Positions 1 through 29,537 of a stretch of 32,000 nucleotides of DNA are shown in pieces. The notes beneath the pieces were generated by a model that worked only from the letters and a program-made list of their open reading frames with translations, ran no database searches and was not told the origin of the DNA. Source of the DNA: Patescibacteria group bacterium. Its GTDB lineage: Bacteria; Patescibacteriota; Patescibacteriia; 2-01-FULL-39-33. The DNA lies in NCBI GenBank assembly GCA_041649575.1, contig JBAZMW010000003.1, positions 90,001-122,000 of the forward strand, read 5' to 3'. The position numbers were made by a program, and so were the translations under genes. The first letter of the stretch is position 1. The number at the start of each line of letters is the position of its first letter.

Positions 1-79
1 GCAAAGCCAGGCCGCTCTCTGTGTCGGCAATAGCCAAACCGATTTTTACTTCACCATAGTCGATGCCAAGTAGTTTCAT
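1..79 (-). CDS. ruvX: YqgF/RuvX Holliday-junction-resolvase-like nuclease, first 26 codons only (gene runs off the left edge)
   Basis: Hand translation of the reverse strand from the ATG at 79-77 gives MKLLGIDYGEVKIGLAIADTESGLAL. This fits the G-I/L-D-x-G-x3-IG-L/V-A N-terminal motif of the YqgF/RuvX family. Confidence 0.7.
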   Translation of the reverse strand, partial: MKLLGIDYGEVKIGLAIADTESGLAL

Positions 80-92
80 GTCTGTTTACAGT

Positions 93-175
93 GTCATTGC
101 GAGGAGCGAAGCGATGTGGCAATCCCGTGGGATCCCCACGTCGCCCGGCCGAATGGCCGGACTCCTCGGGATGAC
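93..175. repeat. GC-rich nested palindromic (REP/MITE-like) intergenic element
   Basis: Terminal inverted repeats GTCATTGCGAGGAG (93-106) and CTCCTCGGGATGAC (162-175) match at 12 of 14 positions. Two internal stem-loops lie between them: CGATGTGG 112-119 with CCACGTCG 136-143, and CCGGCC 145-150 with GGCCGG 155-160. The element lies between the map stop (178) and the ruvX start (79). Confidence 0.6.
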
Positions 176-177
176 AA

Positions 178-948
178 TTAAATAGTAGTTATAATCTCTC
201 CTCCCCTTTCTGTCACCGCGATCGTATGCTCAAAATGCGCCGAGAGCGAATTGTCTCTAGTGGCCACCGTCCAGCCGTCGTCCAAAGTTTCTACCGGCCA
301 GTCGCCAAAATTAACCATTGGCTCTAGAGCCAAAGTCATACCAACCGCCAGCTTGATGTCGGCAAACCTCTTGTCCACATAATTGGGAATTTGCGGATCT
401 TCGTGGGGAGAAAAACCGACTCCATGGCCGCACAATTGCCGCACAACACTAAAACCATTTTTTTCAACGTAATCTTGAATGGCGCGGGAAATGTCCGTCA
501 ATTTATTGCCAGCTTTGGCCTGCCTAATGCCTTTAGACAAAGATTCTTCCGTGACGGAAATAAGTTTTCGGATTTGCCGGCCAACACTACCAACGGCGAC
601 TGTCTTGGCCATGTCGGTAAAAAGCCCGCGATACTCCAGGCCGCAATCAATACCAACGATGTCGCCGCTTTTAATAATCCTATTGGGAACCGGCAGGCCA
701 TGCACCACTTCGTTATTTAACGAAAGGCAAAGAGCCGAGGGATAGGCATGCTCGGCCCAAGAAGCCCGATAACCCTTAAAACTTGGCTTGCCGCCGGCTT
801 TTTTTATTAATTCTTCGGCATAAACACTCAATTCTTCGGTGCCAACGCCGGGTTTTATTTTTTTTATTACCAAAGCCAAAACCTGGGCGAGAATTTTCCC
901 GCCCTGACGCATGGTGGCTATTTGTTGTTTATTTTTTAATTTAACCAT
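178..948 (-). CDS. map: Type I methionine aminopeptidase
   Basis: 256-aa ORF. MVKLKNKQQIATMRQGGKILAQVL..., ...HGLP...GDIVGIDCG...CGHGVG...EPMV... are typical MetAP metal-ligand and fold motifs. Confidence 0.95.
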   Translation of the reverse strand: MVKLKNKQQIATMRQGGKILAQVLALVIKKIKPGVGTEELSVYAEELIKKAGGKPSFKGYRASWAEHAYPSALCLSLNNEVVHGLPVPNRIIKSGDIVGIDCGLEYRGLFTDMAKTVAVGSVGRQIRKLISVTEESLSKGIRQAKAGNKLTDISRAIQDYVEKNGFSVVRQLCGHGVGFSPHEDPQIPNYVDKRFADIKLAVGMTLALEPMVNFGDWPVETLDDGWTVATRDNSLSAHFEHTIAVTERGGEIITTI

Positions 949-954
949 GACTTA

Positions 955-983
955 ATATTAACAAAAAAAGAATAAAATCACAA
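955..983 (-). promoter_or_regulatory. Candidate promoter for map (TTGTGA-17-TAATAT with an upstream TG)
   Basis: Reverse strand reads TTGTGA (983-978), a 17-nt spacer, then TGT-TAATAT (-10 at 960-955). The -10 ends only 6 nt before the map ATG, so the transcript could be leaderless. AT-rich DNA produces such matches easily. Confidence 0.3.
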
Positions 984-1033
984 AAAGATAAACTTATTTT
1001 TGCCTAAATTTAAACAAAAAATAACATTATTTA

Positions 1034-1062
1034 TTGACATTTAATTTTGGATATGATATAAT
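1034..1062 (+). promoter_or_regulatory. Perfect consensus sigma-70 type promoter driving the GC-rich cassette
   Basis: TTGACA at 1034-1039, an exact 17-nt spacer (1040-1056), TATAAT at 1057-1062. It sits about 65 nt upstream of the first cassette ORF and just before the GC jump. Confidence 0.6.
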
Positions 1063-1127
1063 TATATATTGGGTCGGCATCGCGCTGACTCGAGATTTTG
1101 GACATTTTCAACCAAGGAGAAAGAGAA

Positions 1128-1481
1128 ATGAAACGATTTTTCAGCTTTTTGGAGCGGCTGTTCGCCGGCCTGAGTGCGATAGCTCTACTGCTCGGCCTGA
1201 TGTTTGTGGCCGGCATCTGTCTATCGCTGCCCTGGTACGGCTGGATTGCCAGCTTCCTGGCCGGCATCTTCACCGCAGGGATAAGAGTGATCCGCTGGCC
1301 GATCAAAATCGCCTTGCTGGTAATCTGGGGGCCGATGATCATGGCTTTCGGCTACTACATCGTCTTCCCGATGGTCGGGCCGGTGAGTATCGTGCAGGGA
1401 GCGATCTGCTGGGTGATATTCATCACGGCGTTTGTGATGGCTCGCTGCGCCGCCGGCATCAAGGACATGCCAACGGACTGA
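1128..1481 (+). CDS. Hypothetical small polytopic membrane protein (117 aa), cassette gene 1
   Basis: The ATG at 1128 is preceded by AAGGAG (1114-1119, 8-nt spacer). MKRFFSFLERLFAGLSAIALLLGLMFVAGICLSLPWYGWIASFLAGIF... has about four hydrophobic spans. Third codon positions are strongly G/C in this frame. No family recognised. Confidence 0.7.
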   Translation: MKRFFSFLERLFAGLSAIALLLGLMFVAGICLSLPWYGWIASFLAGIFTAGIRVIRWPIKIALLVIWGPMIMAFGYYIVFPMVGPVSIVQGAICWVIFITAFVMARCAAGIKDMPTD

Positions 1482-1538
1482 AAAGGCCTATGAGCGGTGC
1501 CTTTGAAAACCGCTTAAGACAAAGAAGGAGTTGCAACC

Positions 1539-2156
1539 ATGATAGAACCTGTTGGTGTTATATTGTGCGGTATAGTGATCTTGGTCCTTGGGGTTGGGTG
1601 GAGTCTAATCTCAAGGAAGAGTCTGGAATTCTTCAGTTGCGTGACACTGGTGGTGCTGGCTGTCGGCCTGTACTTGTCAGTGTCCGATCACCAAATCCCC
1701 AAGACGTCATGGGGAGCCACCACGCCGGGCGCGATGATGCCCTACGACCAGAAACAAGCCACCGACGCGTTCGACGCATCGGCGAAGCAGGCACAAGGAG
1801 CTACAGGGTGTAGCGCCGGAGCAGAGCAAAGGACCGCTGTGACCGCACTGACCCGCGACGAAGAGACGGCGCTGGCCAGACAACGGAACGCAGCGGCCGC
1901 CCAAGAAAGCGGTGAAACAACCGCCGACAAGTGGCCGATGAAGGAGCTAGCCATCACTCCGCTGAGCAAGTGGTTTAACCAAAGGGAAAGCAAGGGGGGC
2001 TGGTCTTCCGTAAACTATGGCTCGTACCGGTGGGTGCGAGTGGATGATAGGCTGGGACTGCAGTCCCATACGGTATATGGCTGTGTGATTTCCTTCGTGC
2101 CAGAGCCGCCGGCCACGCCAGCGACAACGGCCGAAACAAAGGAGGACAAGCCATGA
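1539..2156 (+). CDS. Hypothetical membrane-anchored protein (205 aa), cassette gene 2
   Basis: AAGGAG at 1525-1530 lies 8 nt before the ATG. The protein has two N-terminal hydrophobic spans (MIEPVGVILCGIVILVLGVGWSLI..., FFSCVTLVVLAVGLYLSV), an Ala/Gln/Thr-rich linker and a Trp/Tyr-rich C-terminal domain (KWFNQRESKGGWSSVNYGSYRWVRVDD...). No family recognised. Confidence 0.7.
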   Translation: MIEPVGVILCGIVILVLGVGWSLISRKSLEFFSCVTLVVLAVGLYLSVSDHQIPKTSWGATTPGAMMPYDQKQATDAFDASAKQAQGATGCSAGAEQRTAVTALTRDEETALARQRNAAAAQESGETTADKWPMKELAITPLSKWFNQRESKGGWSSVNYGSYRWVRVDDRLGLQSHTVYGCVISFVPEPPATPATTAETKEDKP

Positions 2157-2320
2157 CCACGACATGGTGGCAAGAATTGGGACGATATGAGTACGAGATT
2201 GAAGTCGGAGAGAACGGCGGCCAACACTACACCGGCCGCCATCGCTGTGTTGGCGGACAATTGGCAGATGGCCGGTGGCCGATCTTTGGTGACAAGTCTG
2301 GCGAGACGGTTTACGCCTGA
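2153..2320 (+). CDS. Hypothetical small protein (55 aa), cassette gene 3 (below the ORF-track cutoff)
   Basis: Hand translation gives MTTTWWQELGRYEYEIEVGENGGQHYTGRHRCVGGQLADGRWPIFGDKSGETVYA*. The ATG overlaps the gene 2 stop as ATGA (2153-2156). AAGGAGG at 2139-2145 lies 7 nt upstream. Amino-acid composition is varied, unlike the Arg/Ala-rich alternative frame. Confidence 0.55.
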   Translation: MTTTWWQELGRYEYEIEVGENGGQHYTGRHRCVGGQLADGRWPIFGDKSGETVYA

Positions 2321-2333
2321 AAGGAGACGCGCC

Positions 2334-2687
2334 ATGCAATTCGTACTGAAAGTTGATGACGGTGTGAAAGAGCCGCCGACGCTGCGGGATGCCATCCTGG
2401 CGGCTAAGAAGCTGGCCCACTATGACGCCTTGGTGGCTTTCCTGGCCACTCAGAAAATGACCGAGCCAGGAAGAAAGCGACTGGCCGCTAACGCGGTAGT
2501 GGAAGCAATTGGCCACCTCTGGGTGCAGCCGCCAGGCAAGTGGGCCCAACAAGTGCGAAGTTTTGTGGCGGTCGAAGTTGGCGTCAATAGCGCCATAACG
2601 CTTGAAGACTCCCCGTGTCTCGACTTCCCTGTCTTCAACGTGGAGCCAGAGCGGCCGCCCTCGGTTCCGCCCGAACCCGAGTCCTAA
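2334..2687 (+). CDS. Hypothetical protein (117 aa), cassette gene 4
   Basis: This is an internal ATG of the 2187..2687 ORF. It is preceded by AAGGAG (2321-2326, 7-nt spacer) immediately after the gene 3 stop. MQFVLKVDDGVKEPPTLRDAILAAKKLAHYDALVAFL... ends in a Pro/Glu-rich tail. No family recognised. Confidence 0.6.
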   Translation: MQFVLKVDDGVKEPPTLRDAILAAKKLAHYDALVAFLATQKMTEPGRKRLAANAVVEAIGHLWVQPPGKWAQQVRSFVAVEVGVNSAITLEDSPCLDFPVFNVEPERPPSVPPEPES

Positions 2688-2700
2688 CCGTACATTCGAT

Positions 2701-2743
2701 CCCCTGGGGTTGCGCACTTGCGCGACCCCGGGGTAATTTTTTT
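2701..2743 (+). terminator. Rho-independent terminator of the cassette
   Basis: GC-rich imperfect hairpin CCCCTGGGGTTGCGC-ACTT-GCGCGACCCCGGGG (2701-2733), followed by TAATTTTTTT. It begins 14 nt after the gene 4 stop. Confidence 0.75.
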
Positions 2744-2869
2744 ATAAATAATATTTTTTACTATCTTTCTTTTTCTTTTTTAGAATATTTAATTTTATTA
2801 GTTTTAAAAGTTACTTTAGATAAAAATGACCACTAAAAAATTTAGAAACAAAATCAAGTAATTAGAGCG

Positions 2870-2888
2870 TTCCGCCTTCCGGGCGGAA
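2870..2888. other. Short GC hairpin in the cassette-adk spacer
   Basis: TTCCGCC (2870-2876), loop TTCCG, GGCGGAA (2882-2888). Confidence 0.3.
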
Positions 2889-2904
2889 ATTTATAACTGT
2901 TTGA

Positions 2905-2929
2905 AAACCCCGCCTGTAAGGCGGGGTTT
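2905..2929. terminator. Bidirectional terminator between the convergent cassette and adk
   Basis: Perfect 10-bp stem AAACCCCGCC (2905-2914) with GGCGGGGTTT (2920-2929) and loop TGTAA. T-rich sequence follows on both strands (GAGTTTT on plus, TTTTCAAAC on minus). Confidence 0.65.
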
Positions 2930-2996
2930 GAGTTTTATAAATTAGCGATAATTGCGCTAGATTTTGTCTAAATTTTTTAATGGTCAGAGTTTTTGC

Positions 2997-3022
2997 GCTA
3001 CTTTTTGCGGCCAAAAAGTAGC
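2997..3022. other. Hairpin immediately 3' of adk
   Basis: 11-bp stem GCTACTTTTTG (2997-3007) with CAAAAAGTAGC (3012-3022) and loop CGGC, 7 nt beyond the adk stop codon. No clear U-tract follows on the minus strand, so this may be a 3'-end stabiliser rather than a classical terminator. Confidence 0.4.
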
Positions 3023-3029
3023 AATGGGC

Positions 3030-3707
3030 CTATTTCCACCCCACTTTGCTTCTTAAATCCTCCACCATCCGCCTGACCAGCTGCTGAAAAACAGCTTCAA
3101 TATGCTTCTCGCCGTCGATCTCTATCAGCAGCCCTTTGTCTCGATAAAATTTTATAATACCATCCATCTCTCGATGATAAATTTCCAGCCGGTTCGTCAC
3201 TACCTCTTCTTTGTCGTCATCGCGCTGAAACAGCGGTTCGCCGCAATTATCACAAATTCCCTCTGTTTTTGGCGGTGAATATTTGATGTGCCAGGAATGG
3301 CCATTTTTGCACACCCGGCGACCAGACATTCTCTCGACTATTGTCTCATCGGAAACCTTAACCAAGAAAACATAATCCACATCCACATTCTTGTCTAAGA
3401 AATCCGCCTGATCCAAAGTCCTCGGACAGCCATCCAGGACATAACCGAATTTACAGTCGTCTTTTTTTATTCTTTCGACAACCAAATGATCAACCACTTC
3501 TGTTGGCACCAACTGTCCCTTTTCGATATAAGCCTTGACCTCGGCGGACAAAGGGTGACTGGAATCATTTTTTATGGACGAAAGGATTTGGCCAGAAGAA
3601 ACATGAGGGATATCAAAAGTTTTGGCCAATAGACCGGCCTGGGTGCCTTTGCCGGAAACTGGCGGACCTAAGACAATGATCTCAAATGGTTTTTCGTTTT
3701 GAAACAT
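3030..3707 (-). CDS. adk: Adenylate kinase (canonical, Zn-type LID)
   Basis: GPPVSGKGTQ P-loop, LDGCPRTLDQ, and LID CKNGHSWH...CDNCGEPLFQRDDD. It sits directly downstream of secY as in spc operons. Confidence 0.95.
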   Translation of the reverse strand: MFQNEKPFEIIVLGPPVSGKGTQAGLLAKTFDIPHVSSGQILSSIKNDSSHPLSAEVKAYIEKGQLVPTEVVDHLVVERIKKDDCKFGYVLDGCPRTLDQADFLDKNVDVDYVFLVKVSDETIVERMSGRRVCKNGHSWHIKYSPPKTEGICDNCGEPLFQRDDDKEEVVTNRLEIYHREMDGIIKFYRDKGLLIEIDGEKHIEAVFQQLVRRMVEDLRSKVGWK

Positions 3708-3778
3708 ACGAATTGGCTTATAGTTTATAGCGTATGGCTTATGGACTATTATTTGCCATAGGCCATTGACTATTTAAG

Positions 3779-5053
3779 CTAGATTTCCTCGTAATCGCGC
3801 ATGGAGAGTTGCGCGTTGATTTGATTGACCGTCTCAATTACTACCGAAACCACGATTAACAAGGAGGTGCCGCCAACCACCAACGACTGGGTGCCGGTAA
3901 CTTGAGAAGTGGCCAAAGGCAAAACGGCGATGATGCCCAAAAATAGGGCGCCGGTAAAAACAATACGGCTTATGATTTTCTGGATATATTCGGCGGTGTT
4001 TCTGCCCGGACGAATGCCAGGTATGAAGCCGCCCTGCTTCTGCAGATTTTCGGAAATCTGATCAGGATGAAAAATAACCGCTGTATAAAAATAGGTGAAA
4101 GCCACCACCATTATAAAATACAGAGCGCCATAAAATAATTGGTTTTGAAAAATTCTCACCACCCAAAAAGCGGCGGCGGCCACCCAAGCGGTATGGACTT
4201 GAGTGAATAATTGAGCAATCATTGGCGGAAAGAGAATGATAGAGATGGCAAAAATAATTGGAATAACACCGGCCTGATTAACCCTTAAGGGCAAATGAGT
4301 GTTGGTGCCGCCGTACATTTTATTGCCGCGCACTTGGCGCGCATAAGAAATGGGTATGTTTCTTTGGCCTTCGGTAATAAAAACCACGCCCACAATCACC
4401 ACCAGGGCGATTACCGCAAAAACAATCATATTGATAATCTGCGACTGATCATAGGAATATAAAATACTACTGACTGCTTTGGGAATACCAGCAACAATAC
4501 CGGCAAAAATCAAAAGCGAGATGCCATTACCAACATGCTTCTCGGAAATCAGCTCTCCTAGCCACATCAGAAAAACCGTGCCCCCGGTGACAGTAATAAT
4601 TGTCAGGGCAAACTGCCAGGGAGTAAAGTTGGCGAGGACACCGCCGGCGCTGCGCTGCAAAATAGAAATCATACCAAAGGCCTGGAGCATAGCCAGGGGG
4701 ACGCTCAGCCAACGAGTCCATTGGTTTATTTTTTGCCGGCCGTACTCCCCTTCTTTGGAGAGTTCTTCCAGCTTAGGAACCACCATTACCAATAATTGAA
4801 AAATAATCGAGGCGGTAATATAAGGAGCCACGCCCAACATGACAACGGAAAAATTTTCCATACTGCCGCCGGAAAACACATTCATAAGACCGAGCAGCTG
4901 ATTGTTGGCAAATAAATTTTTTAGAGCCGTAGTATCGATTCCTGGTACCGGTATATGAGCCGCGACCCGAAAAATAACCAGCATCAGAAAGACAAACAAG
5001 ATACTCTTGCGTAAATCGGGAATTTTCCAGATTTGAGTCAGTTTATTGAACAT
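3779..5053 (-). CDS. secY: Preprotein translocase subunit SecY
   Basis: 424-aa polytopic membrane protein between rplO and adk. ...GISLLIFAGIVAG... and ...GGFIPGIRPGRNTAEYI... are typical SecY motifs. Confidence 0.96.
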   Translation of the reverse strand: MFNKLTQIWKIPDLRKSILFVFLMLVIFRVAAHIPVPGIDTTALKNLFANNQLLGLMNVFSGGSMENFSVVMLGVAPYITASIIFQLLVMVVPKLEELSKEGEYGRQKINQWTRWLSVPLAMLQAFGMISILQRSAGGVLANFTPWQFALTIITVTGGTVFLMWLGELISEKHVGNGISLLIFAGIVAGIPKAVSSILYSYDQSQIINMIVFAVIALVVIVGVVFITEGQRNIPISYARQVRGNKMYGGTNTHLPLRVNQAGVIPIIFAISIILFPPMIAQLFTQVHTAWVAAAAFWVVRIFQNQLFYGALYFIMVVAFTYFYTAVIFHPDQISENLQKQGGFIPGIRPGRNTAEYIQKIISRIVFTGALFLGIIAVLPLATSQVTGTQSLVVGGTSLLIVVSVVIETVNQINAQLSMRDYEEI

Positions 5054-5056
5054 AAA

Positions 5057-5494
5057 CTATTTTAATTCCGCTTGGCCGCCGGCTTTGATAATGGCCTCTT
5101 TGGCGCTAGCAGAGAAGGCGCGAGCAACAACGGTTAATTTTTTGGTTAATTTGCCCTCACCCAAAACTTTTACGCCACTAACTTTTTTGGCTATCAAGCC
5201 ATTTTTTTTCATGGCCTTAATGTCTGCCACGGTTCCAGCGTCAAATTTTTCTAAATCCCTTAAATTAACCACGACCAATTTCGGTTTCAAGCTTCTAAAG
5301 CCACGAATTTTGGGAATGCGTTGCAGGGTTTGTTTAAAGCCAAGGGCTTTTAGACCGCCTTTGCCGCCACTTCTGGCTCTCTGGCCTTTCATGCCACGGC
5401 CGGAATAGGTGCCGCGCTTTCCGCCGCGACCAACGCGTTTGGCTTTCTTGGCCGCTCCTTTGGCCGGCTTTAAATTGGATAAAGTCAAAGACAT
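5057..5494 (-). CDS. rplO: 50S ribosomal protein L15
   Basis: MSLTLSNLKPAKGAAKKAKRVGRGGKRGTYSGRG... The ATG at 5494 is preferred over the TTG at 5506 given in the ORF track. Confidence 0.93.
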   Translation of the reverse strand: MSLTLSNLKPAKGAAKKAKRVGRGGKRGTYSGRGMKGQRARSGGKGGLKALGFKQTLQRIPKIRGFRSLKPKLVVVNLRDLEKFDAGTVADIKAMKKNGLIAKKVSGVKVLGEGKLTKKLTVVARAFSASAKEAIIKAGGQAELK

Positions 5495-5498
5495 AATT

Positions 5499-5993
5499 TT
5501 AGTCAATTTTTTCTTTTTTGGGTCGTTTCTTTAAGAGGCCCAGGGCTTTGATGGTCGCCCGAACATTATTAACTTTATTATTGGTGCCTAAAATTTTAGA
5601 AACAGCGTTTTCTACGCCCGCCAACTCCAAAACAGTGCGCACCGCGCCACCGGAGATAATTCCTGTTCCCGCGGGAGCTGGTTTCAGCAGAATTCTAGCC
5701 GAACCATCTTTAAGAAAAATTTCATGAGGGATAGTGCCATAAACCAAATTTATTCTAATGGCGTTCTTCTCGGCTTTTTTGGCCGCCTTCTGAACAGCCA
5801 GCGGTACGTCGTGGCCCTTGGCCAGGCCAAAACCAATCTTTCCCTTTTTGTCACCCACAACCACACAGGCCCGGAAACGCATTCTTTTACCGCCAGCCAT
5901 AACTCTGGTGACACGAGCGATGTCAACGATCCGCTGATCCATTTCTGACTGTTCTTTTCTGGTTTTGGGAAATCTGTTATTTTTATCTGTCAT
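5499..5993 (-). CDS. rpsE: 30S ribosomal protein S5
   Basis: ...RVTRVMAGGKRMRFRACVVVGDKKGKIGFGLAKG... is an S5 signature. The gene lies between L18 and L15. Confidence 0.96.
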   Translation of the reverse strand: MTDKNNRFPKTRKEQSEMDQRIVDIARVTRVMAGGKRMRFRACVVVGDKKGKIGFGLAKGHDVPLAVQKAAKKAEKNAIRINLVYGTIPHEIFLKDGSARILLKPAPAGTGIISGGAVRTVLELAGVENAVSKILGTNNKVNNVRATIKALGLLKKRPKKEKID

Positions 5994-6001
5994 AAAAAAT
6001 A

Positions 6002-6355
6002 TTAAATTTTTAAACCGGCTTCTCTGGCGCCATCGGCCAAAGCCTTGACCCGGCCATGATATTTAAAAGCACCTTTATCAAAAACTACCACGGTAATTTT
6101 TTGCCCAGCCGCTTTTTGCGCTACTAACTTTCCTAGTTCATAAGCTTGAGCGGTTTTGGTTTTTCCGCCTTTTACTTCCTTGTCGCTGGCACTAACTAAA
6201 GTCCGCCCCTTGGTGTCATCGACTAACTGAACATACAAATGTTCTAAACTACGATAAACGGAAAGCCGCGGCCGCTCACTGGTGCCTTTGATTTTGGCTC
6301 TAATCCTGGCTTTCCTTCTTATCTTAGTTTGGTTTTTTTGTTTAGTTTTTTTCAT
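6002..6355 (-). CDS. rplR: 50S ribosomal protein L18
   Basis: ...RPRLSVYRSLEHLYVQLVDD...FDKGAFKYHGRVKALADGAREAGL. Confidence 0.96.
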   Translation of the reverse strand: MKKTKQKNQTKIRRKARIRAKIKGTSERPRLSVYRSLEHLYVQLVDDTKGRTLVSASDKEVKGGKTKTAQAYELGKLVAQKAAGQKITVVVFDKGAFKYHGRVKALADGAREAGLKI

Positions 6356-6367
6356 AAATAATCACCA

Positions 6368-6907
6368 TTATTTGCCAGCGGTTTTGCCGGCTTTGCGCCG
6401 CACCAATTCGCCGACATATCTGATACCACTACCTTTATAAGGCTCTGGTTTTTTTATTCTTCTGATCTGAGCGGCCACTTCGCCAACCAACTGTTTGTCG
6501 ATACTAGAAACTGTAATAACATTGCCTTCGATTTTGGCCTCGACACCATTAGGGATATTATATTCTACTGGATGAGAAAAGCCAACATTTAGAATTATCT
6601 TTCTGCCACTAAGAGCGGCCTTATAGCCAATGCCGTTAATTTCCAGGCCCTTAGAAAAGCCGACCGTCACACCAAGAATCATATTTTTAATTAAACTGCC
6701 GAACAATCCCCACAAAGCGCGCTGGTTTTTGTCGTTTTCATTTTTAACTTTTAAGCTAATGCCCTCGGCGCCAATCTCAAGACTAACCAAGCGATGCAGT
6801 TCTTGTTTTAATTCGCCCTTAGGGCCTTTCACAGTCAGAACGCCGCTGTCGTTTTTAACCTCAACGCCAACCGGAATTTTTATTAATTGTTTACCAATTC
6901 TGCTCAT
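6368..6907 (-). CDS. rplF: 50S ribosomal protein L6
   Basis: The canonical MSRIGKQLIKIPVGVEV start at the ATG at 6907 avoids overlap with rpsH. The ORF track extends to 6925. Confidence 0.95.
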   Translation of the reverse strand: MSRIGKQLIKIPVGVEVKNDSGVLTVKGPKGELKQELHRLVSLEIGAEGISLKVKNENDKNQRALWGLFGSLIKNMILGVTVGFSKGLEINGIGYKAALSGRKIILNVGFSHPVEYNIPNGVEAKIEGNVITVSSIDKQLVGEVAAQIRRIKKPEPYKGSGIRYVGELVRRKAGKTAGK

Positions 6908-6911
6908 ATTT

Positions 6912-7310
6912 TTAATAAATTTCACAAATTATCTCGCCGCCCAAGCCAGCTTTTTTGGCTTCATCGCCAGTCATCAATCCTCGAGAGGTGGAAATAATTG
7001 ATATTCCTAAACCATTTAAGACTCTGGGCAACTTATCTTTAGCGGCATAAACCCGCTTGCCAGGCTTGGAAATCTTTTTCAGACTGGTAATGGCCGGCTT
7101 GGAATCCTCGTACTTCAAGCTCACCATGAGACCGCCGAATTTGCTGTCAGCCCCCGGCTTGATCTCTTCGAAGCTTTCAATCAGTCCTCGTTTCTTAAAA
7201 ATTTTTATCATTTCCAGCTTGATTTTGGAAAAAGGAATATAGACCTCCGTCTTTTTAACTTTGGAGGCATTCCTGATTCTAGTTAACATGTCAGCTATAG
7301 GATCGGTCAT
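6912..7310 (-). CDS. rpsH: 30S ribosomal protein S8
   Basis: MTDPIADMLTRIRNA... is the classic S8 N terminus. Confidence 0.97.
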   Translation of the reverse strand: MTDPIADMLTRIRNASKVKKTEVYIPFSKIKLEMIKIFKKRGLIESFEEIKPGADSKFGGLMVSLKYEDSKPAITSLKKISKPGKRVYAAKDKLPRVLNGLGISIISTSRGLMTGDEAKKAGLGGEIICEIY

Positions 7311-7333
7311 ATAAAATTAAAATTAAATTTATT

Positions 7334-7519
7334 TTACCAGGAAGACTTACTTACCCCGGGAATCTGGCCATTATTGGCTAATTCGCGAAAACAAATACGG
7401 CAGAGTTTAAACTTCCTCATATAACCGTGTCTACGGCCGCAACGCCAGCAACGGTTAACAATACGGGTGGAAAATTTCCTTTTTTTATTCGATTTTGCTC
7501 TTTGCGCTTGTGTCGCCAT
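7334..7519 (-). CDS. rpsN: 30S ribosomal protein S14, short zinc-binding (type Z) form
   Basis: 61 aa with [23 protein letters not shown] (CxxC...CxxC) and a ...SW C terminus. Confidence 0.95.
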
Positions 7520-7530
7520 ATAAAAAATTA

Positions 7531-8079
7531 TTAACTTTTCTTCTGGAAGGGAAACCCTAATAACCTAAACAATTCCACGCCCTCGGCCTGAGTCTGGGCG
7601 GTAGTAGTGACGGCGATTTCCAATCCGTGTATTTTTTCGACCTCATCAGACTTAATTTCCGGAAAAACATTATGCTCTTTAAAGCCCAAATTTAAATTGC
7701 CACGCTGATCGACATTCTTAAGCGGCAAGCCGCGAAAATCACGAATTCTGGGAATGGCGATATTGATCAGCTTATCCAAAAAATCGTACATTCTATTGCC
7801 TCTTAAGGTAACTTTTACTCCCACCACCATGTTTTCTCTTATTTTAAAGGCGGAGATGGCTTGGCGGGCCTTGGTACGGACTGGTTTTTGGCCTGTAATT
7901 CGTATGATGTTTTTCTCGACATTTTCCAAATAACCACTGTCGGTGTTTCGAGAATTAATGCCCACATTAATAGTGACCTTTTCGATTCTGGGTACGGCCA
8001 GTTTATTTTTAAAACCAAACTTTTCCTGCATGGCCGGAATTACTTCGGTTTGATATTTTTTGGCTAATCTGGTTTTCAT
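7531..8079 (-). CDS. rplE: 50S ribosomal protein L5
   Basis: 182 aa with L5-like sequence (...[13 protein letters not shown]..., ...[18 protein letters not shown]...), between L24 and S14. Confidence 0.96.
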
Positions 8080-8083
8080 ATTT

Positions 8084-8422
8084 TTAGATAACTTCTTTGC
8101 ACTTTTGACAAACTCTGCTTTTTATAATTTTTTGATTGTTGTTGTCCGGCGCCGCTTCCACTTTTGTTAATTTGAAACCAACACGAGTCGGACGGCCGCA
8201 TTTGGTACAAATCAAGGCGACATTGGAAACATCCAAAGGAGCGGGAAACTGAATTCTTTGGCCTTTTTCGCCTTGTCTTTTGGCTCGTTGATGCTTAATC
8301 ATCAGATTTAGGCCTTCGATCACTATCTTTTTTTCTTCAACTAAAACCTGCAAGACCTTGCCAGTTTTGCCCTTATCCTTGCCAGTTAGAATTTTAACTT
8401 TATCGCCAGCTTTTATTTTCAT
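8084..8422 (-). CDS. rplX: 50S ribosomal protein L24 (with C-terminal CxxC...CxxC zinc ribbon)
   Basis: KOW motif MKIKAGDKVKILTGKDKGKTGKVLQV, plus CTKCGRPTRVGF...VCQKCKEVI. Confidence 0.95.
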   Translation of the reverse strand: MKIKAGDKVKILTGKDKGKTGKVLQVLVEEKKIVIEGLNLMIKHQRAKRQGEKGQRIQFPAPLDVSNVALICTKCGRPTRVGFKLTKVEAAPDNNNQKIIKSRVCQKCKEVI

Positions 8423-8433
8423 ATAATTATTAT

Positions 8434-8805
8434 TTATAAAACCTCCGGGGCCAAAGAAATAATTTTTTGGTAGCCCAAGTTTCTCAATTCTCTGGCTACT
8501 GGTCCAAAAATCCGAGTGCCTTTCATATCTTTGTTTTTGGTATCAATAATTACAGCGGCATTATCATCAAAACGGATATAAGAACCATCGGATCGTCTAA
8601 CTTCTTTTTTGGTCCGCACCAACACCGCGTGAACCACATCGCCCTTTTTGACCATACTGTGAGGCGTAGCTTCCTTGATAGAGGCAGTGACCACTTCGCC
8701 TAAACGGGCATAACGTTTTCTATAACCGCCTAAAACCTTGATCACCATTAACTTTTTTGCGCCCGTATTATCAGCCGATTTTAAAATTGATCTAGTTTGA
8801 ACCAT
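8434..8805 (-). CDS. rplN: 50S ribosomal protein L14
   Basis: [27 protein letters not shown]... Confidence 0.97.
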
Positions 8806-8806
8806 A

Positions 8807-9061
8807 TTATTTGTAAATTACCCTAAACTTTTTATCTTTGCTTAGGGGGCGGCACTGAACAAACTCGACAGTATTACCAACCTGATACTGGCCTTTCGGG
8901 TCATGCACTTTGTACTTTTTACTGACTCGATATCTCTTTTGATAGCGGGGATGCAACTTGAAACGATCAACTCTCACCACGATAGTTTTGGCCATCTTGG
9001 CAGAAACCACTTCTCCGGAAAATTTTCTCTTCATTGACTTTTTTTCAGATTCTAAAGACAT
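8807..9061 (-). CDS. rpsQ: 30S ribosomal protein S17
   Basis: ...[29 protein letters not shown]... Confidence 0.95.
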
Positions 9062-9074
9062 ATAATTAACTTTA

Positions 9075-9260
9075 TTACTTTTTTTCTCTTAAAACCGTGA
9101 GAACCTTGGCGATATTGCGCCTGGTCGCCCTAATCTCTCGGATATTTTTTATTTGCTTCTGTTTAACCTTGAAATTTAAATCGTCAAACTTATGACGCAA
9201 CTCTTTAAGCAGCTGGTCAAGCTCACTAACCGATTTAGTTCTAATTTCTTTTATTTTCAT
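9075..9260 (-). CDS. rpmC: 50S ribosomal protein L29
   Basis: 61-aa helical protein MKIKEIRTKSVSELDQLLKELRHKFDDLNFK... between L16 and S17. Confidence 0.93.
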   Translation of the reverse strand: MKIKEIRTKSVSELDQLLKELRHKFDDLNFKVKQKQIKNIREIRATRRNIAKVLTVLREKK

Positions 9261-9262
9261 GG

Positions 9263-9670
9263 CTAATTTTTGACGATAAATTTAGTTTTAATAGGAAATT
9301 TGTAGGCTGCCAACTCCAAGGCCTCTTTGGCCTTAGCTTCAGGGAGACCGTCCATCTCCAATATCACTGTTCCAGGCCTAACTACGGCCACATAATATTC
9401 CGGCACCCCCTTGCCGCCACCCATGGTTGCCTGGGTGCCTTTGGCAGAAATCGAGCGATGTGGGAAAATTCTGATCCATAATTTACCGCCTTTTTTGACC
9501 GAACGGGAAATCACCCTTCTGGCCGCTTCTATTTGCGTGGCTTTGATCCAGCCACCCGTAACCGCCTTCAGGCCATAATCGCCAAAAGCCAGTTCCTTAT
9601 TACCACTAGCCAAACCGCGAACATCGGGTCGGTGATATTTTCTTCTTTTTAACTTTTTGGGGGCTAACAT
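9263..9670 (-). CDS. rplP: 50S ribosomal protein L16
   Basis: MLAPKKLKRRKYHRPDVRGLA...IEAARRVISR... Confidence 0.96.
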   Translation of the reverse strand: MLAPKKLKRRKYHRPDVRGLASGNKELAFGDYGLKAVTGGWIKATQIEAARRVISRSVKKGGKLWIRIFPHRSISAKGTQATMGGGKGVPEYYVAVVRPGTVILEMDGLPEAKAKEALELAAYKFPIKTKFIVKN

Positions 9671-9680
9671 ATATTAAAAT

Positions 9681-10382
9681 TTATTTTTTTGTTTTAGCGA
9701 CTTTGTTTTTATTGTCTAAAGCTTCCTGGTCGAAAATTTCACCTTTATAAATCCAAACTTTGACACCAATCTTACCATAAATGGTCTGGGCGGCGCCGCG
9801 ACAATAATCGATATCGGCACGCAAAGTGTGCAAAGGAATTTTTCCAGAAAAAAGAGTTTCTCTACGGGCGATTTCCGCACCGTTCAAGCGACCCGAAACT
9901 ATAATCTTAATGCCTTTGGCACCAGCCTTTTCCACTCGGCCGATAGCCTGCTTTACGGCTCGACGAAAAGGAATTCTTTTTTCCAAATCAGCAATAACTT
10001 GTTGCATAACCACTGAAGAATCCAAGGCCGGACGTTCTATTTCTAAAATATTGATATTAATGGTTTTGATTCCTCTTTTCCGGCTAAAACTATCTTTCAA
10101 AAATTTATTATGAATTTCTTTTTTTAACTCTTCTGCTCCTTGACCGCCACGACCGATAACCAAGCCCGGCTTGGCACAATAAATATTGATACCAAGACCA
10201 TTAGCTGAACGCTCCATATCAACCCTGGAAACACCGGCTGTTTTAAGCTTGTTTATAATAAATTTTCTAACCAAAATATCCTGCCGTAAAAATTCGGAAA
10301 AATTTTTATCAGCAAACCATCTGGAATCCCAGGTTTTATTGATTTTAAGACGGAAAGCTTTTGGATGAACTTTTTGACCCAT
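9681..10382 (-). CDS. rpsC: 30S ribosomal protein S3
   Basis: MGQKVHPKAFRLKINKTWDSRWFA... includes a KH domain and ...GRLNGAEIAR... Confidence 0.97.
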   Translation of the reverse strand: MGQKVHPKAFRLKINKTWDSRWFADKNFSEFLRQDILVRKFIINKLKTAGVSRVDMERSANGLGINIYCAKPGLVIGRGGQGAEELKKEIHNKFLKDSFSRKRGIKTININILEIERPALDSSVVMQQVIADLEKRIPFRRAVKQAIGRVEKAGAKGIKIIVSGRLNGAEIARRETLFSGKIPLHTLRADIDYCRGAAQTIYGKIGVKVWIYKGEIFDQEALDNKNKVAKTKK

Positions 10383-10388
10383 AATATT

Positions 10389-10925
10389 TTATTTTTGGCC
10401 CGATCTTCTATTAAGTATTCTTTTGACAAATCCTTTTGAGGATTTGGAAGAAGTGCTTTTGTCGGCTAAACCGGCCGATTTTTCTTCTTTGGCTTTATCG
10501 GACTTTTTTAATTCTTCCCAATCGTCAACTTTTATTATATCATCATTTTTACTTTCTTTTTTCTTTATTTCTTCTTTTTTAACCTCGGTGGGTACCCGTT
10601 CTGACAAGGTTAGAATAATATGCGAAGAACCCTTTCTTATCGGCGTAGCGCGGCCAAAGGCCCTGGGAGCCCAACGCTTTAAGACTGGGCCTTCATCAAC
10701 CTTAATCTCTTTAATAAACAAATTATTTCTTTTTAATTTATTATTTTCTTCGGCATTACTGATGGCCGACTTGAGCAATTTAGCAATCGGCTCGGCTGCC
10801 GCTTTGGTGCTAAACTTTAATTGTACCAGAGCCGCTTCCACGTCCAAACCCCTAATCAGATTGGCAACCAGCCTGATCTTTTTGGGTGACCTGCGAATAA
10901 ATCTTGCCTTGGCTCGTGTTTCCAT
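10389..10925 (-). CDS. rplV: 50S ribosomal protein L22 with a C-terminal Lys/Glu-rich extension of about 60 aa
   Basis: METRAKARFIRRSPKKIRLVANLIRG... is the L22 core. It is followed by ...EVKKEEIKKKESKNDD...KAKEEKSAGLADKSTSSKSSKGF... Confidence 0.94.
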   Translation of the reverse strand: METRAKARFIRRSPKKIRLVANLIRGLDVEAALVQLKFSTKAAAEPIAKLLKSAISNAEENNKLKRNNLFIKEIKVDEGPVLKRWAPRAFGRATPIRKGSSHIILTLSERVPTEVKKEEIKKKESKNDDIIKVDDWEELKKSDKAKEEKSAGLADKSTSSKSSKGFVKRILNRRSGQK

Positions 10926-10934
10926 AAATTATAA

Positions 10935-11234
10935 TTATTTAGCAGCTTCTTTTTTATCTTGATCAATCGCCTTTTGAATCTTACCGCCATGTTTGATAAA
11001 TTTCCTGGTTGGTGAAAATTCGCCGAGCTTATGTCCAACCATATTTTCCAGAACAAAAACGTTAAGATGCTCTCTGCCGTTATGAACACCAAAAGTAAAG
11101 CCTACCATTTCAGGAGTAATAGTACAGTCGCGCGCCCAGGTTTTTATCACTGTTTTATCCCCTTTTTTGAGCTGGCTCAATTTTTTCAGAATCTTCTGAT
11201 CGATATAGGGACCCTTTTTAAGACTTCGGGACAT
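10935..11234 (-). CDS. rpsS: 30S ribosomal protein S19
   Basis: Canonical [18 protein letters not shown] start at the ATG at 11234. The track ORF extends upstream into rplB. Confidence 0.95.
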
Positions 11235-11238
11235 AAAT

Positions 11239-12090
11239 TTAATTACTTTTACGATTTTTATTTTTTCTGCGAACCAGAATAAAGCGATCTGATTTTTTGC
11301 CATCTTTTCTGGTCTTAACACCTAAAGCGGGTTTGCCCCACGGAGTTTTAGGATGAGTTAAGCCGATAGGATTATGACCTTCGCCACCGCCGTGCGGATG
11401 ATCAACCGGATTCATGGCTTTGCCGCGAACTGTTGGCTTAATGCCACGATGTCTCATGCGACCAGCCTTGCCCCAACGGATATTTTTGAAATCCTGATTG
11501 CTGACCGATCCGATAGTAGCCAATGACTTACCCGAAACTAAGCGAACTTCTCCAGAAGGCAGCTTCAGCTGGGCATAACCGTTGTCGATACCCATCAAAT
11601 AAACGCTATTGCCGGCGCTTCTGGCCAGCTGACCGCCCTTGCCCGGTACCAGCTCTACATTATAAACAAACATACCCGGAGGAATCAACTCTAACGGCAT
11701 TGAATTACCCGGCTGGAAATCAACGATTTTTTGAGAGCTGACAACCAAATCGCCTATTTTTAATTCTTGTGGCGCTACGATGTAAGACTTTTGACCGTCT
11801 CGATAATACAACAAAGCAATACGACAGTTTCTATTAGGATCATATTCAATGGCCGCCACTTGGGCCGGGATATCAAATTTATCTCTTTTATAATCAATGA
11901 TTCTGATTTTTTTCTTGGCCCCACCGCCCTGATGACGAACAGTGATCTTGCCCTGATGGTTACGACCAGCTCGATTTTTACCGGAAACAATTAGTCGCTT
12001 CTCTGGCTTTTTTTTGACAAGGTCATGACTGGTCAGAACCGAAGTTTGACGTCTGGCGGGGGTGGTTGGTTTATAAATTCTTATTGCCAT
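11239..12090 (-). CDS. rplB: 50S ribosomal protein L2
   Basis: [18 protein letters not shown]...[13 protein letters not shown]... Confidence 0.97.
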
Positions 12091-12098
12091 AAAATTAT

Positions 12099-12617
12099 TT
12101 AGACTCCTTCCTGAATTTCTATTGATTTACCGGCTGGAAAAGTAATAATTGCTTTCTTCCAATTCTTGGTCTGCCCTGAAGTTCTGCCATAACGGACCTT
12201 TTTGCCTTTGTTATTTAAGATATTAATACTTAAGGGTTTAACGCCATAGCGCGACTCGATTGCCTGAGCTACCTGAATCTTATTGGCCGAAACTTCTACT
12301 TTAAAAACATACTGATTGGAACCGGTTAAATAATTGGCTTTCTCGGTGATTAGGGGTTTGACTAAAACGCCGTGCAAGTCTTTGTTTGCCCAAGTCTTTG
12401 CTTCTTTGGGTTTATCTTCCTTTTTTGTCAAGACTAATTCTTTCTTTTGATCTTTTTCTTTTTTGTCCTTAGGCGCCAATGGCTTTTCTAAACGCACAAC
12501 TCGATCAGCCTCACTGCCTTTAACGGCTTTGGCGACTGTTGCTTCTTTTTCGTCTTTCTGAGTCTTTAATTTTTTTAATTTATTGAAAATTCCCATATGA
12601 ACATTATTTAATTGCAT
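12099..12617 (-). CDS. rplW: 50S ribosomal protein L23 with an N-terminal Lys/Glu-rich extension of about 75 aa
   Basis: The L23 core is [17 protein letters not shown]...[19 protein letters not shown]. The start is ambiguous: the ATG at 12617 overlaps rplD by 14 nt, and the ATG at 12596 lies 7 nt after the rplD stop. Confidence 0.9.
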
Positions 12618-13284
12618 CGGCTGATTTCAAAGCCACCTGGCGATAATGCTTGTCTATCCTGCTAACAGCTTCTTCTGAAAGCAATAAGGTATCGTATTTT
12701 AAAACATCGACACAATTTAAACTATCGGCTAAAATCGTGTTGACATTCTTCAGATTTAGAGCGGCTTTAATGCTTTTTTGATCGTTATTGTTTAAAATCA
12801 AGAGAAATTTTTTGCTGTCTTTTAATTCACTAATTTTATTTTTTAACTGTTTGAGCTGGTTGGCCAAATCTTTGGTCTTGCCCGATTCTACAGCCAATTT
12901 ATCAAAGACTAAAAAGCTACCGCTACCAATTTTATCCGAAAGACACATAGCCAAGGCCAACTGCTTCTGTTTCTTATTGATTTTCTGGGAAAAATTTCGA
13001 TCTTTCCGAGGGCCAAAGGTTATGCCGCCACCCTTCCATAAGGGCGAACGAATGGAGCCGTGACGAGCCCGTCCCGTCCCCTTTTGGCGCCAAGGTTTTT
13101 TGCCACCACCCTTAACTTCGCCTCGAGTCTTAGTGTGAGCCAAAACCTGACGAGCATTGGCTAACTGCGCCACTACAACCTGATGCACCACTTCCGGCTT
13201 AACTTTGACGCCAAAAATCCTGGAGCTTAATTCTAGCTCTTTGATTTTTTCACCGCTTGAGTTGTAAACCGGAACCTTTATCAT
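12604..13284 (-). CDS. rplD: 50S ribosomal protein L4
   Basis: ...GGGKKPWRQKGTGRARHGSIRSPLWKGGGITFGP... Confidence 0.97.
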   Translation of the reverse strand: MIKVPVYNSSGEKIKELELSSRIFGVKVKPEVVHQVVVAQLANARQVLAHTKTRGEVKGGGKKPWRQKGTGRARHGSIRSPLWKGGGITFGPRKDRNFSQKINKKQKQLALAMCLSDKIGSGSFLVFDKLAVESGKTKDLANQLKQLKNKISELKDSKKFLLILNNNDQKSIKAALNLKNVNTILADSLNCVDVLKYDTLLLSEEAVSRIDKHYRQVALKSADAIK

Positions 13285-29445: not shown

Positions 29446-29473
29446 ATTATAGCACTCCCAAAATGGCTGTCAA
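29446..29473 (-). promoter_or_regulatory. nrdD promoter TTGACA-16-TGC-TATAAT
   Basis: On the reverse strand the -35 is at 29473-29468 and the -10 at 29451-29446, preceded by TG. It lies about 130 nt upstream of the nrdD ATG. Confidence 0.55.
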
Positions 29474-29537
29474 AAAATTAATTTTATTAAACTTTTTAGA
29501 GATTTTTTCTAAGCAGCCGGGGGTTTTGTGGATAAAT

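Follow-up and report, generated by a model that had tools for sequence, protein, structure and literature searches.

Why should a GC-rich block of DNA, on the strand opposite to its neighbors, lie between adk and map, which are adjacent in most of the related genomes that we compared? The block is in a 32-kb window from a Patescibacteria group bacterium (GenBank assembly GCA_041649575.1, contig JBAZMW010000003.1, positions 90,001 to 122,000), and an initial annotation of this window, made from its letters alone, had described it as a foreign operon of four genes. We propose, with moderate confidence, that the block is a self-contained accessory expression cassette that resembles a phage moron, and that it belongs to a lineage-specific family of units that have a common regulatory frame and variable cargo. 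(Morons are independent transcription units between conserved genes of phages, as in the lambdoid phages.) The anatomy of the block, its insertion, a paralogous unit nearby, and the reuse of its promoter module ahead of unrelated cargo can all be read from the sequence itself. Besides the window, we used L001, a Logan contig from run SRR8542065 that runs 3.6 kb past the start of the window (window position 1 is position 3612 of L001). With this extension, 35.6 kb of the 191,558-bp source contig could be read.

The block between adk and map

The GC-rich unit is 1.7 kb long, is on the + strand, and is antisense to both map and adk. Within it (positions 1068-2735), the GC content is 57.6%, versus 42.0% in the remaining 30 kb of the window, and a 300-nt profile rises from 0.34 to 0.59 at one edge of the block and falls to 0.33 at the other. 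The GC-rich stretch starts at the predicted transcription start (around 1068-1071) and stops at the terminator, so it coincides with the transcribed region. The features of the block and its two flanking genes are as follows (ORF, open reading frame; SD, Shine-Dalgarno sequence):

178-948, - strand: map (methionine aminopeptidase), host flank; 256-aa ORF, with Peptidase_M24 found on the identical Logan contig; transcribed divergently from the cassette
995-1072, + strand: conserved promoter module, which matches our sequence model R1 and comprises a T-rich stretch, the box, the -35 element, the spacer, the TG-extended -10 element, and ATTGG
1004-1022, + strand: the box CTAAATTTAAACAAAAAAT, part of the promoter module
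1034-1039, + strand: -35 element TTGACA, followed by a 17-nt spacer
1057-1062, + strand: TG-extended -10 element TATAAT, from a promoter scan
1068-1072, + strand: ATTGG at the predicted transcription start
1069-1093, + strand: 5'-terminal stem-loop of the predicted transcript; 10-bp stem (1069-1078 with 1084-1093), present in both the minimum free energy and the centroid structures
1128-1481, + strand: ORF1, 117 aa, predicted integral membrane protein with about 3-4 spans; SD AAGGAG at 1114
1539-2156, + strand: ORF2, 205 aa, predicted membrane hairpin, linker, and C-terminal domain; SD AAGGAG at 1525
2153-2320, + strand: ORF3, 55 aa, predicted soluble, 12.7% Trp+Tyr; ATGA overlap with the stop of ORF2; SD AAGGAG at 2139
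2334-2687, + strand: ORF4, 117 aa, predicted soluble and helical with a Pro/Glu tail; SD AAGGAG at 2321
2702-2747, + strand: intrinsic terminator, the conserved 3' end of the frame (GGTTGCGCACttGCGCGACCCCGGGGTaATTTTTTTATAA); 14-bp stem (2702-2733) plus a T-run
3030-3707, - strand: adk (adenylate kinase), host flank; 225-aa ORF with ADK and ADK_lid domains; converges with the cassette

The host appears to be a Candidatus Buchananbacteria-like member of the Patescibacteria. Its Adk shares 72% identity with the Adk of a Candidatus Buchananbacteria metagenome-assembled genome (MAG; L002), 70% with that of a Patescibacteria-group MAG (L003), and 56% with those of two further Buchananbacteria (L004 and L005). 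The adk-map interval is 2,081 bp in the window. In three of these four relatives, map comes directly after adk, with a gap of 6, 41, or 22 bp (L003, L004, and L005, respectively), and in the fourth (L002) the interval is occupied. Furthermore, L001 is a separate assembly, and it is 100% identical to positions 1-9993 of the window, with both junctions included. Given the short gaps in L003-L005 and the identity of L001 across both junctions, we conclude that the block is a true insertion that splits map from adk.

If the block were instead an assembly chimera, or a contaminant that was joined into the tail of the spc operon, this would explain the abrupt change in composition, and it is true that the cassette's proteins are known from one population only. 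But both ends of the join would have to fall at a single locus, and the separate Logan assembly would have to contain it too. As described below, another unit whose ends match those of the block is found between a different pair of host genes, and the adk-map site of L002 is occupied by a unit with the same promoter module. The cassette's proteins are on record from JGI, ENA, and Logan sources. In view of these several sources, the relatives' short gaps, and L001, we consider a chimera to be very unlikely.

There is no integrase or transposase ORF in the block (none of its four ORFs has a transposase domain in Pfam or NCBIfam), and the only repeats at its flanks are AT-rich low-complexity matches, so we have no convincing direct repeat. 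We considered the box AAATTTARA as an att-like repeat, as there are three copies of it in the adk-map interval, but we did not accept it because there are 10 copies in the 32 kb.

Most of what the initial annotation said about the locus agrees with these results: the antisense placement between map and adk (the identity of both flanks is confirmed by Pfam domains), the true insertion (for which it had suggested comparing the adk-map interval across relatives), and the lack of an integrase, a transposase, or flanking direct repeats. The GC contrast and the abrupt switch that it reported were also borne out, although its samples of host sequence, at 37%, were below the host mean. It had argued against a chimera because both flanks belong to the same operon, and L001 weakens that concern further. 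Finally, it described the block as foreign-looking, and both the composition and the translation signals (see below) do differ from those of the host. The block probably originated outside of the host's core genome.

Expression signals, genes, and the search for relatives

The promoter (1034-1062) has the form TTGACA-17-TGnTATAAT, which matches the consensus at 12 of 12 positions and has the TG extension as well. The pattern TTGACA-N16-18-TATAAT occurs twice in the 32 kb, versus 0.01 times expected. Model R1 matches positions 995-1072 with 51.5 bits (E = 3.7e-14). The distance from a box, AAATTTAAACAAAAAAT, to the TTGACA downstream of it is 28 nt, both in the window and (by hand count) in the metagenomic locus L044. 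At the other end of the block, the terminator folds with an energy of -31.1 kcal/mol (z = -5.2). The window contains one copy of its motif (GGTTGCGCACNNGCGCGACCCCGGGGT), and IMG/VR contains none.

Stem-loops at the 5' terminus, among them the ompA leader and the 5' stabilizers of Bacillus, guard mRNAs against decay that depends on the 5' end. We propose that the stem-loop at 1069-1093 would stabilize the cassette's mRNA in this way. Taken together, the promoter, the A/T box, the 5' hairpin, the four SD sites, and the terminator look like a frame that is built for high expression, and it is from these signals that we infer the transcription start, high expression, and mRNA stabilization. Rfam families matched neither the window nor any of 13 promoter loci, except for an unrelated tmRNA.

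We also considered whether the module could be the general promoter architecture of this host, and we rejected this idea, as both the second perfect promoter in the window (29446-29473, - strand) and the palindrome at 16.5 kb lack the module. This second promoter precedes a gene for a 681-aa protein that adjoins ftsZ, and there is a perfect DnaA box (29527-29535, - strand) about 55 nt upstream of it.

All four of the cassette's ORFs have AAGGAG at 7-9 nt before the ATG, versus no SD-like motif within 21 nt of the start for any of 18 host genes from the L001 gene calls, the equivalent of window 178-13281 (aspS, recO, ruvX, map, adk, secY, and 12 ribosomal-protein genes). The density of AGGAG on the + strand of the block is about 7 times that of host DNA. 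The genes are closely packed, with a gap of 13 nt between ORF3 and ORF4. The GC content at third codon positions (GC3) is 0.61-0.79 and is higher than at second positions (GC2) in all four ORFs, and in three of the four, GC2 is the lowest of the three positions.

As to the products, ORF1 has two long hydrophobic stretches (residues 4-40 and 61-112), which we take as about 3-4 spans. ORF2 has two N-terminal spans: its layout is an N-terminal membrane hairpin of two helices, a linker that is rich in Ala, Gln, and Thr, a small C-terminal domain that contains Trp and Tyr, and a tail rich in Pro. Neither ORF3 nor ORF4 has a hydrophobic span. This mix suggests that the four products may form a membrane-associated complex. 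In single-sequence AlphaFold predictions, residues 1-51 of ORF2 have pLDDT of 71-81 and the rest is below 50 (mean for the whole model, 50.7), and the model of ORF4 is unusable (mean pLDDT 47.5). Models with such low confidence give meaningless matches in a fold search.

Could the ORFs be something other than genes, such as the chance frames of a structured non-coding RNA or of decaying DNA, held open by high GC content? High GC does give long chance ORFs, and a 256-aa antisense ORF (1947-2717) is open in the same sequence; we rejected it as a gene, since it encodes Arg-rich junk and has no start signal. The absence of homologs to demonstrate conservation, the poor AlphaFold models, and the partial decay of the sister unit would also fit with this explanation. 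On the other hand, AAGGAG is at the optimal spacing before all four ORFs, the stop/start overlap and the 13-nt gap are as expected for genes, the codon positions differ in GC content as described above, and the hydrophobic spans are clean only in the called frames. Also, a structured RNA is not indicated by Rfam. We take the four ORFs to be real genes and view the alternative as highly improbable.

We searched widely for relatives of these proteins. For all four, comparisons to Pfam, PHROG, PADLOC, and NCBIfam yielded only sub-threshold noise: for Pfam and NCBIfam, nothing reached significance at E = 0.001 or came near the cut-offs. A sequence search of PDB gave noise or nothing, and IMG/VR has no relatives of any of the four. 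Among 5.8 billion clusters, ORF1 and ORF4 matched only themselves, and a word-index search of the same clusters found no homolog of ORF2. An exhaustive phmmer search for ORF2 against 1.84 billion representatives found only P0003, which corresponds to the ORF2 gene with an internal GTG taken as its start and has no record of its own as a gene. As it is an alternative-start call of the same gene, P0003 is not an independent homolog. The searches for ORF3 covered Pfam, PHROG, PADLOC, NCBIfam, PDB, and IMG/VR. We rejected a possible relative of ORF2 in L003 (tblastn, 32% identity over 74 aa, E = 0.04 with a tiny database), as the match is in an unrelated Lys-rich ORF of 104 aa. By these searches, ORF1, ORF2, and ORF4 are orphans in large protein collections, and ORF3 is an orphan relative to profile libraries, PDB, and IMG/VR.

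The initial annotation fared well on these points. It had described a complete expression unit, with a perfect promoter, packed ORFs, and a GC-rich hairpin followed by a T-run, and all of these parts were confirmed. We reproduced the coordinates of its four ORFs, the ATGA overlap, and the 13-nt gap. Hydropathy agrees with its two N-terminal spans for ORF2, with its soluble ORF3 and ORF4, and, through the spans in ORF1 and ORF2, with its membrane-associated module; ORF1 is a membrane protein as it said, with about 3-4 spans (about four in the annotation). It recognized no family for any of the proteins, and the profile searches that it called for gave nothing above threshold.

A second unit and the reuse of the promoter module

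On L001, at about 1761-2690, which is 2.3 kb beyond the start of the window, there is a second antisense GC-rich unit. It lies in the same orientation between two other host genes:

L001 114-1568: aspS, flank of the second unit
L001 2698-3258: recO, whose stop is within about 8 nt of the second unit's terminator

The GC content of the second unit is 55%, and its flanks are as low as 18% GC. Its promoter is TTGACA-17-TAGAAT with the TG extension, and the promoter model matches it (L001b) with 51 bits. The two leaders are homologous (ATTGAGCGGCACAGTGCTGACTCAAAA in the window and ATTGGGTCGGCATCGCGCTGACTCGAGA in the second unit), with the common motif ATTGRG..GGCA....GCTGACTC. The second unit has a 5' hairpin at the same place (L001 1834-1857; z = -2.1), and its terminator (L001 2650-2690) is identical to the window's at 38 of 41 positions. 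Thus, both of the hairpins near the ends of the cassette (1069-1093 and 2702-2733) are kept in the second copy, and they are dissimilar to each other.

The contents of the two units are another matter. A frame of the second unit that bears stop codons ends in VIAFVPEPPATAP, which is the counterpart of residues 181-193 of ORF2 (VISFVPEPPATPA). This remnant is followed by a gene that starts with ATG, as in the window, but this gene is an unrelated 112-aa ORF. Beyond the 13-aa remnant, we found no likeness between the cargo of the window and that of L001b. The ends of the two local copies are 80-93% identical, and apart from the remnant, the cargo has diverged beyond recognition. We interpret the two units as paralogous frames with mosaic and partly decayed cargo. 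As the ends are better kept than the contents, there may be selection on the ends or there may have been recent gene conversion.

The second unit changes two aspects of the initial annotation. The block is an insertion, as it had said, but it does not stand alone, as there is a paralogous unit with the same promoter, leader, and near-identical terminator only 2.3 kb away. And the suggestion that the block was recently acquired is not supported; the decayed paralog argues that the family has already spent some time in this genome.

A related arrangement is found at the syntenic site in L002, where the adk-map interval is 1,065 bp. On the strand that faces away from map, L002 has a promoter module, ATTGACA-N13-ATGATATAATTATACATTGG, that matches the window through the -10 element and the predicted start. 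Behind the module come two ORFs, one SD-led (72 aa) and one for a membrane protein (62 aa), and then a terminator. The cargo of L002 has no similarity to that of the window. The L002 interval also contains about five tandem direct repeats of about 27 nt (TTTGTCATTCCCGCGCCCTCC...; 6866-6985), an array that ends in a GTCATTCCCGCGAAGGCGGGAATCC hairpin.

To find more instances of the module, we scanned metagenomes with the promoter 19-mer TGATATAATTATAYATTGG, which identified 62 loci; a proper -35 element is present in about 15 of them. We aligned the module from 11 sequences: the window, L001b, L002, and eight of the scanned loci. In 8 of the 11, the box YYAAATTTARA is found at 20-35 nt upstream of the -35 element, and this box was absent from the query. 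Outside of the 19-mer, the window is identical to L044 at 48/57 positions and to L033 at 46/58, and L002 is identical to L040 at 60/68 and to L042 at 53/63, yet the syntenic pair of the window and L002 is identical at only 31/41. There are two types of module, one with AAATTTAAACAAAAAAT and the other with the DnaA-box-like TGTGGATAA. Because the window is closer to L044 than to the syntenic L002, module type cuts across synteny.

Overall, a module of about 80 nt recurs with 84-88% identity upstream of unrelated, family-less genes, on metagenome contigs whose taxonomy is unchecked. Full-length matches to the sequence model range from 29 to 64 bits (the lowest are three loci outside the training set: L025 with 36.8, L050 with 32.0, and L013 with 28.8). 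With this model, neither the rest of the window nor the L003-L005 regions yielded another copy. The genes behind the modules are SD-led, have no Pfam hit above the curated cut-off and no PHROG family, and are unrelated to the window's cargo. Most of these units are GC-richer than their flanks (0.45-0.56 versus 0.09-0.43). The promoter that the initial annotation saw as a perfect consensus is just that, but it is also part of this conserved module. The published idea that comes nearest is promoter reuse, or putative mobile promoters, in which highly similar promoters lie upstream of non-homologous genes, whether within or between genomes (PMC3575422).

A simpler scenario is a one-off horizontal gain from a GC-rich donor, with the second unit as a local duplicate and the promoter likeness as convergence on sigma-70 and UP elements. 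The jump in composition and the SD usage, which are unlike the host, would fit with this scenario, as would the lack of mobility genes or flanking repeats. We see only two copies of the frame, 2.3 kb apart, and the other loci were fetched by a promoter 19-mer, which biases them towards similarity. However, convergence does not easily explain the likeness across a 17-nt box and the spacer, with 84-88% identity outside the core, at non-syntenic loci with unrelated cargo, or why the box keeps roughly the same spacing to the -35 hexamer downstream of it (28 nt in the window). Nor would a one-off gain explain why the same site in L002 carries the module ahead of other cargo, or why the two local copies have similar ends around cargo that has diverged except for 13 amino acids. 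We consider this scenario to be unlikely.

Several results do weigh against our proposal of a family of cassettes with a common frame. First, the promoter elements are driven by the consensus and the loci were fetched by the 19-mer, so their similarity is partly by construction; we regard the identity in the upstream box and the spacer as the independent part of the likeness. Several of the contigs with modules are from the same metagenome series as the L002 contig. Second, only two full copies of the frame were seen within the 35.6 kb, so a single local duplication is possible. (Looking up FtsZ to obtain more sequence from this genome led to just a 2.7 kb Logan contig.) Third, the GC content of the L002 unit is 0.45, versus 0.46 for its flanks; since the L002 cargo is not GC-rich, a foreign composition is not a trait of the family. 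Fourth, we found no terminal inverted repeats, target duplication, or recombinase, and since the ends of the cassette are wholly explained as expression signals, their conservation does not require mobility. Fifth, the ORFs have no homologs that would show selection on them. Finally, PADLOC identified 0 defense families among the four proteins, which does not favor a role in conflict.

Some of the scanned loci have a different leader family behind the module (L025, L033/L051, L040, L042, and L044/L057; 90-140 nt; not in Rfam). These leaders are conserved and start with a 5'-terminal stem, ATTGGU...GCCAAU, around a hairpin, with three covarying pairs, and they precede proteins of 145-236 aa that have a C-terminal motif in common (PIxALGSxW...RFAxVRE) and do not belong to any Pfam or PHROG family. 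In one type of module, there is a perfect DnaA box (TTATCCACA/TGTGGATAA) just upstream of the -35 element (L002 7641-7649, - strand; L040; and L042).

Known systems, neighboring elements, and a possible role

Like a phage moron, the cassette is compact, has its own strong promoter (12/12 at 1034-1062) and intrinsic terminator (2702-2743), has a deviant composition, and sits between genes that are adjacent in relatives; and morons too carry accessory cargo that is often of unassigned or conflict-related function. Unlike a moron, it is in a bacterial chromosome, between adk and map, and has no phage homologs; it is also 15 GC points above its host, and its regulatory ends recur with other cargo.

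This raises the possibility that the cassette is a remnant of a phage or mobile element of the Candidate Phyla Radiation (CPR), either a true moron or an early transcription unit that outlasted a decayed prophage. Such an origin would account for the strong promoter and the terminator, for the SD sites, and for proteins that have no relatives; the deviant composition and the unit's own promoter and terminator fit a moron, and orphan status is typical of phage accessory genes. But there are housekeeping genes on both sides, and no phage genes are found within the 32-kb window, whose content is ribosomal and housekeeping. None of the four ORFs has a PHROG match or a relative in IMG/VR, and the terminator motif is not in IMG/VR either. 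A blastn search of 50,697 phage records found nothing, and among 72,556 plasmids the only match was a chance one to 60 nt of AT-rich sequence. The promoter 19-mer has one match in IMG/VR, in a giant-virus bin with 23% GC, and this match lacks the module; we rejected two matches to the upstream box in IMG/VR, as they are low-complexity A-runs without a -10 region. We view a phage remnant as rather improbable.

Compared to the putative mobile promoters (PMC3575422), our module is alike in that similar promoters lie upstream of non-homologous genes, but it differs in that the two local copies also share the 5' hairpin leader and a matching terminator, which is to say the whole frame. By these comparisons, the cassette is an instance of promoter reuse that extends to an entire expression frame.

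We also compared the cassette with other kinds of elements. Integron cassettes are promoterless, carry an attC site, and form an array beside an intI integrase gene with its attI site. Like them, our units have small variable cargo with many orphan ORFs, a conserved site, and a conserved strong promoter, but each unit has its own promoter and the units are dispersed between host genes. We found no attC-like imperfect palindrome among the repeats (the only 3' structure is the perfect terminator hairpin with its T-run), and there is no intI ORF between or beside the flanks, where the four ORFs have no Pfam match. The cassette may also be compared to the palindrome-associated, non-autonomous elements of the IS200/IS605 type, whose subterminal hairpins are recognized by a Y1 (HUH) transposase and which insert next to a fixed short target: it has hairpins near both ends and no terminal inverted repeats, target duplication, or inner transposase. 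The two end hairpins have nothing in common with one another, and each can be accounted for as an expression signal (a 5' stabilizer of the mRNA or a terminator); we identified no TnpA or IS200/IS605 guide motifs in the 35.6 kb. The lack of a transposase, or of terminal inverted repeats with a target-site duplication, sets it apart from insertion sequences, transposons, and miniature inverted-repeat transposable elements (MITEs). Unlike known defense or toxin-antitoxin systems, no component matches a curated model in PADLOC, Pfam, or NCBIfam. ORF1 is small with multiple spans, as in a holin-endolysin cassette, but ORF2-ORF4 have no muralytic domain (no lysozyme, amidase, or peptidase domains were found with Pfam, PHROG, or PDB).

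Another element lies between the cassette's terminator and the stop of adk:

2827-2986, no strand: 160-nt inverted-repeat element with 38-nt arms (I1, TGACCA...TGGTCA) that are 76% complementary, and with two GC-rich hairpins (2872-2892 and 2905-2929)

This element folds with an energy of -51.8 kcal/mol (z = -6.3) and contains a terminator-like site at 2905-2929. Both of its arms carry a AAATTTAGA-AAAA box that resembles the box ahead of the cassette's promoter. The second unit has no counterpart of this inverted repeat; there, the recO stop is about 8 nt past the terminator. Probably, the hairpins at 2872-2929 terminate adk and insulate the converging transcripts. The element as a whole may be a terminator and insulator for adk or a small MITE-like element, and it may or may not be part of the cassette.

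The cassette cuts map off from its operon, so map would have to use its own promoter, in 949-1033. The promoter scan did not list a site in this region. A candidate lies right beside the ATG of map, with TAATAT 9 nt upstream (within 949-985, - strand), and in L002, TATAAT is found 6 nt upstream of the ATG of map (7700-7737). This suggests that map's mRNA may be leaderless or nearly so where a cassette separates map from adk.

On the other side of map, between its stop and the start of ruvX, there is a 91-nt GC-rich branched palindrome (window 95-177; -49.7 kcal/mol, z = -6.0). It translates as a pseudo-peptide, 'VIARSEA...', and similar 'GTCATTCCCGC/GTCATTGCGAGG' elements are intergenic in L002 and L003. 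In L003, map and ruvX are separated by a gene for an AbiEii nucleotidyltransferase toxin (7844-8506; Pfam E = 3e-14), which is preceded by a 68-aa ORF. The tail of this operon appears to collect accessory conflict genes in this lineage.

Returning to the cassette as an accessory unit, we propose that its maximal sigma-70-type promoter module would fire at about 1068-1071, away from map, and that the 10-bp terminal hairpin, formed by the first 26 nt of the transcript, would protect its 5' end. The four ORFs would be translated from strong AAGGAG sites, unlike the 18 SD-less host genes that we examined, to give four small proteins, two of them integral to the membrane and two soluble. The very stable terminator would end the RNA before it ran antisense into adk, and the hairpins at 2872-2929 would add insulation. 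The frame itself would have spread by duplication or recombination, anchored on its conserved ends or through a function that acts in trans.

What might the cargo do? Our tentative guess, which we would not be surprised to see overturned, is that it acts in conflict at the level of the cell envelope, as in superinfection exclusion, a toxin/immunity pair, or cell-cell interference. The roles that the initial annotation had raised (phage exclusion or defense, or a toxin/immunity pair) are likewise guesses. We suggest a role in conflict because of the rapid turnover of the cargo (the window versus L002), the decayed paralog, the orphan proteins, and the AbiEii gene in L003. A bolder idea, which we doubt, is that CPR genomes harbor a new class of promoter-carrying cassettes, whose frames are copied into the intergenic sites of conserved operons by a trans-acting mechanism and whose ends allow the cargo to recombine. 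If so, these cassettes would supply SD-led, strongly expressed, fast-turnover orphan proteins to organisms whose own genes lack SD sequences.

CPR bacteria have tiny genomes in which about half of the genes are uncharacterized, and the ways in which they acquire new genes and express them are poorly known. The locus described here provides a concrete route for gene gain, in which a reusable strong frame brings orphan and apparently membrane-associated proteins into the interior of an operon that is among the most conserved in bacteria. The contrast between the SD-led cassette and the SD-less host genes is a simple signature by which accessory or conflict genes could be detected across these genomes. 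If the frames are mobile, we would be dealing with a new kind of cassette system, and the frames would also offer a ready set of strong promoters, 5' stabilizers, and terminators for CPR genetics. If they arose only by local duplication, they would still be a clean example of promoter reuse, together with orphan genes that have strong sequence signs of being real.

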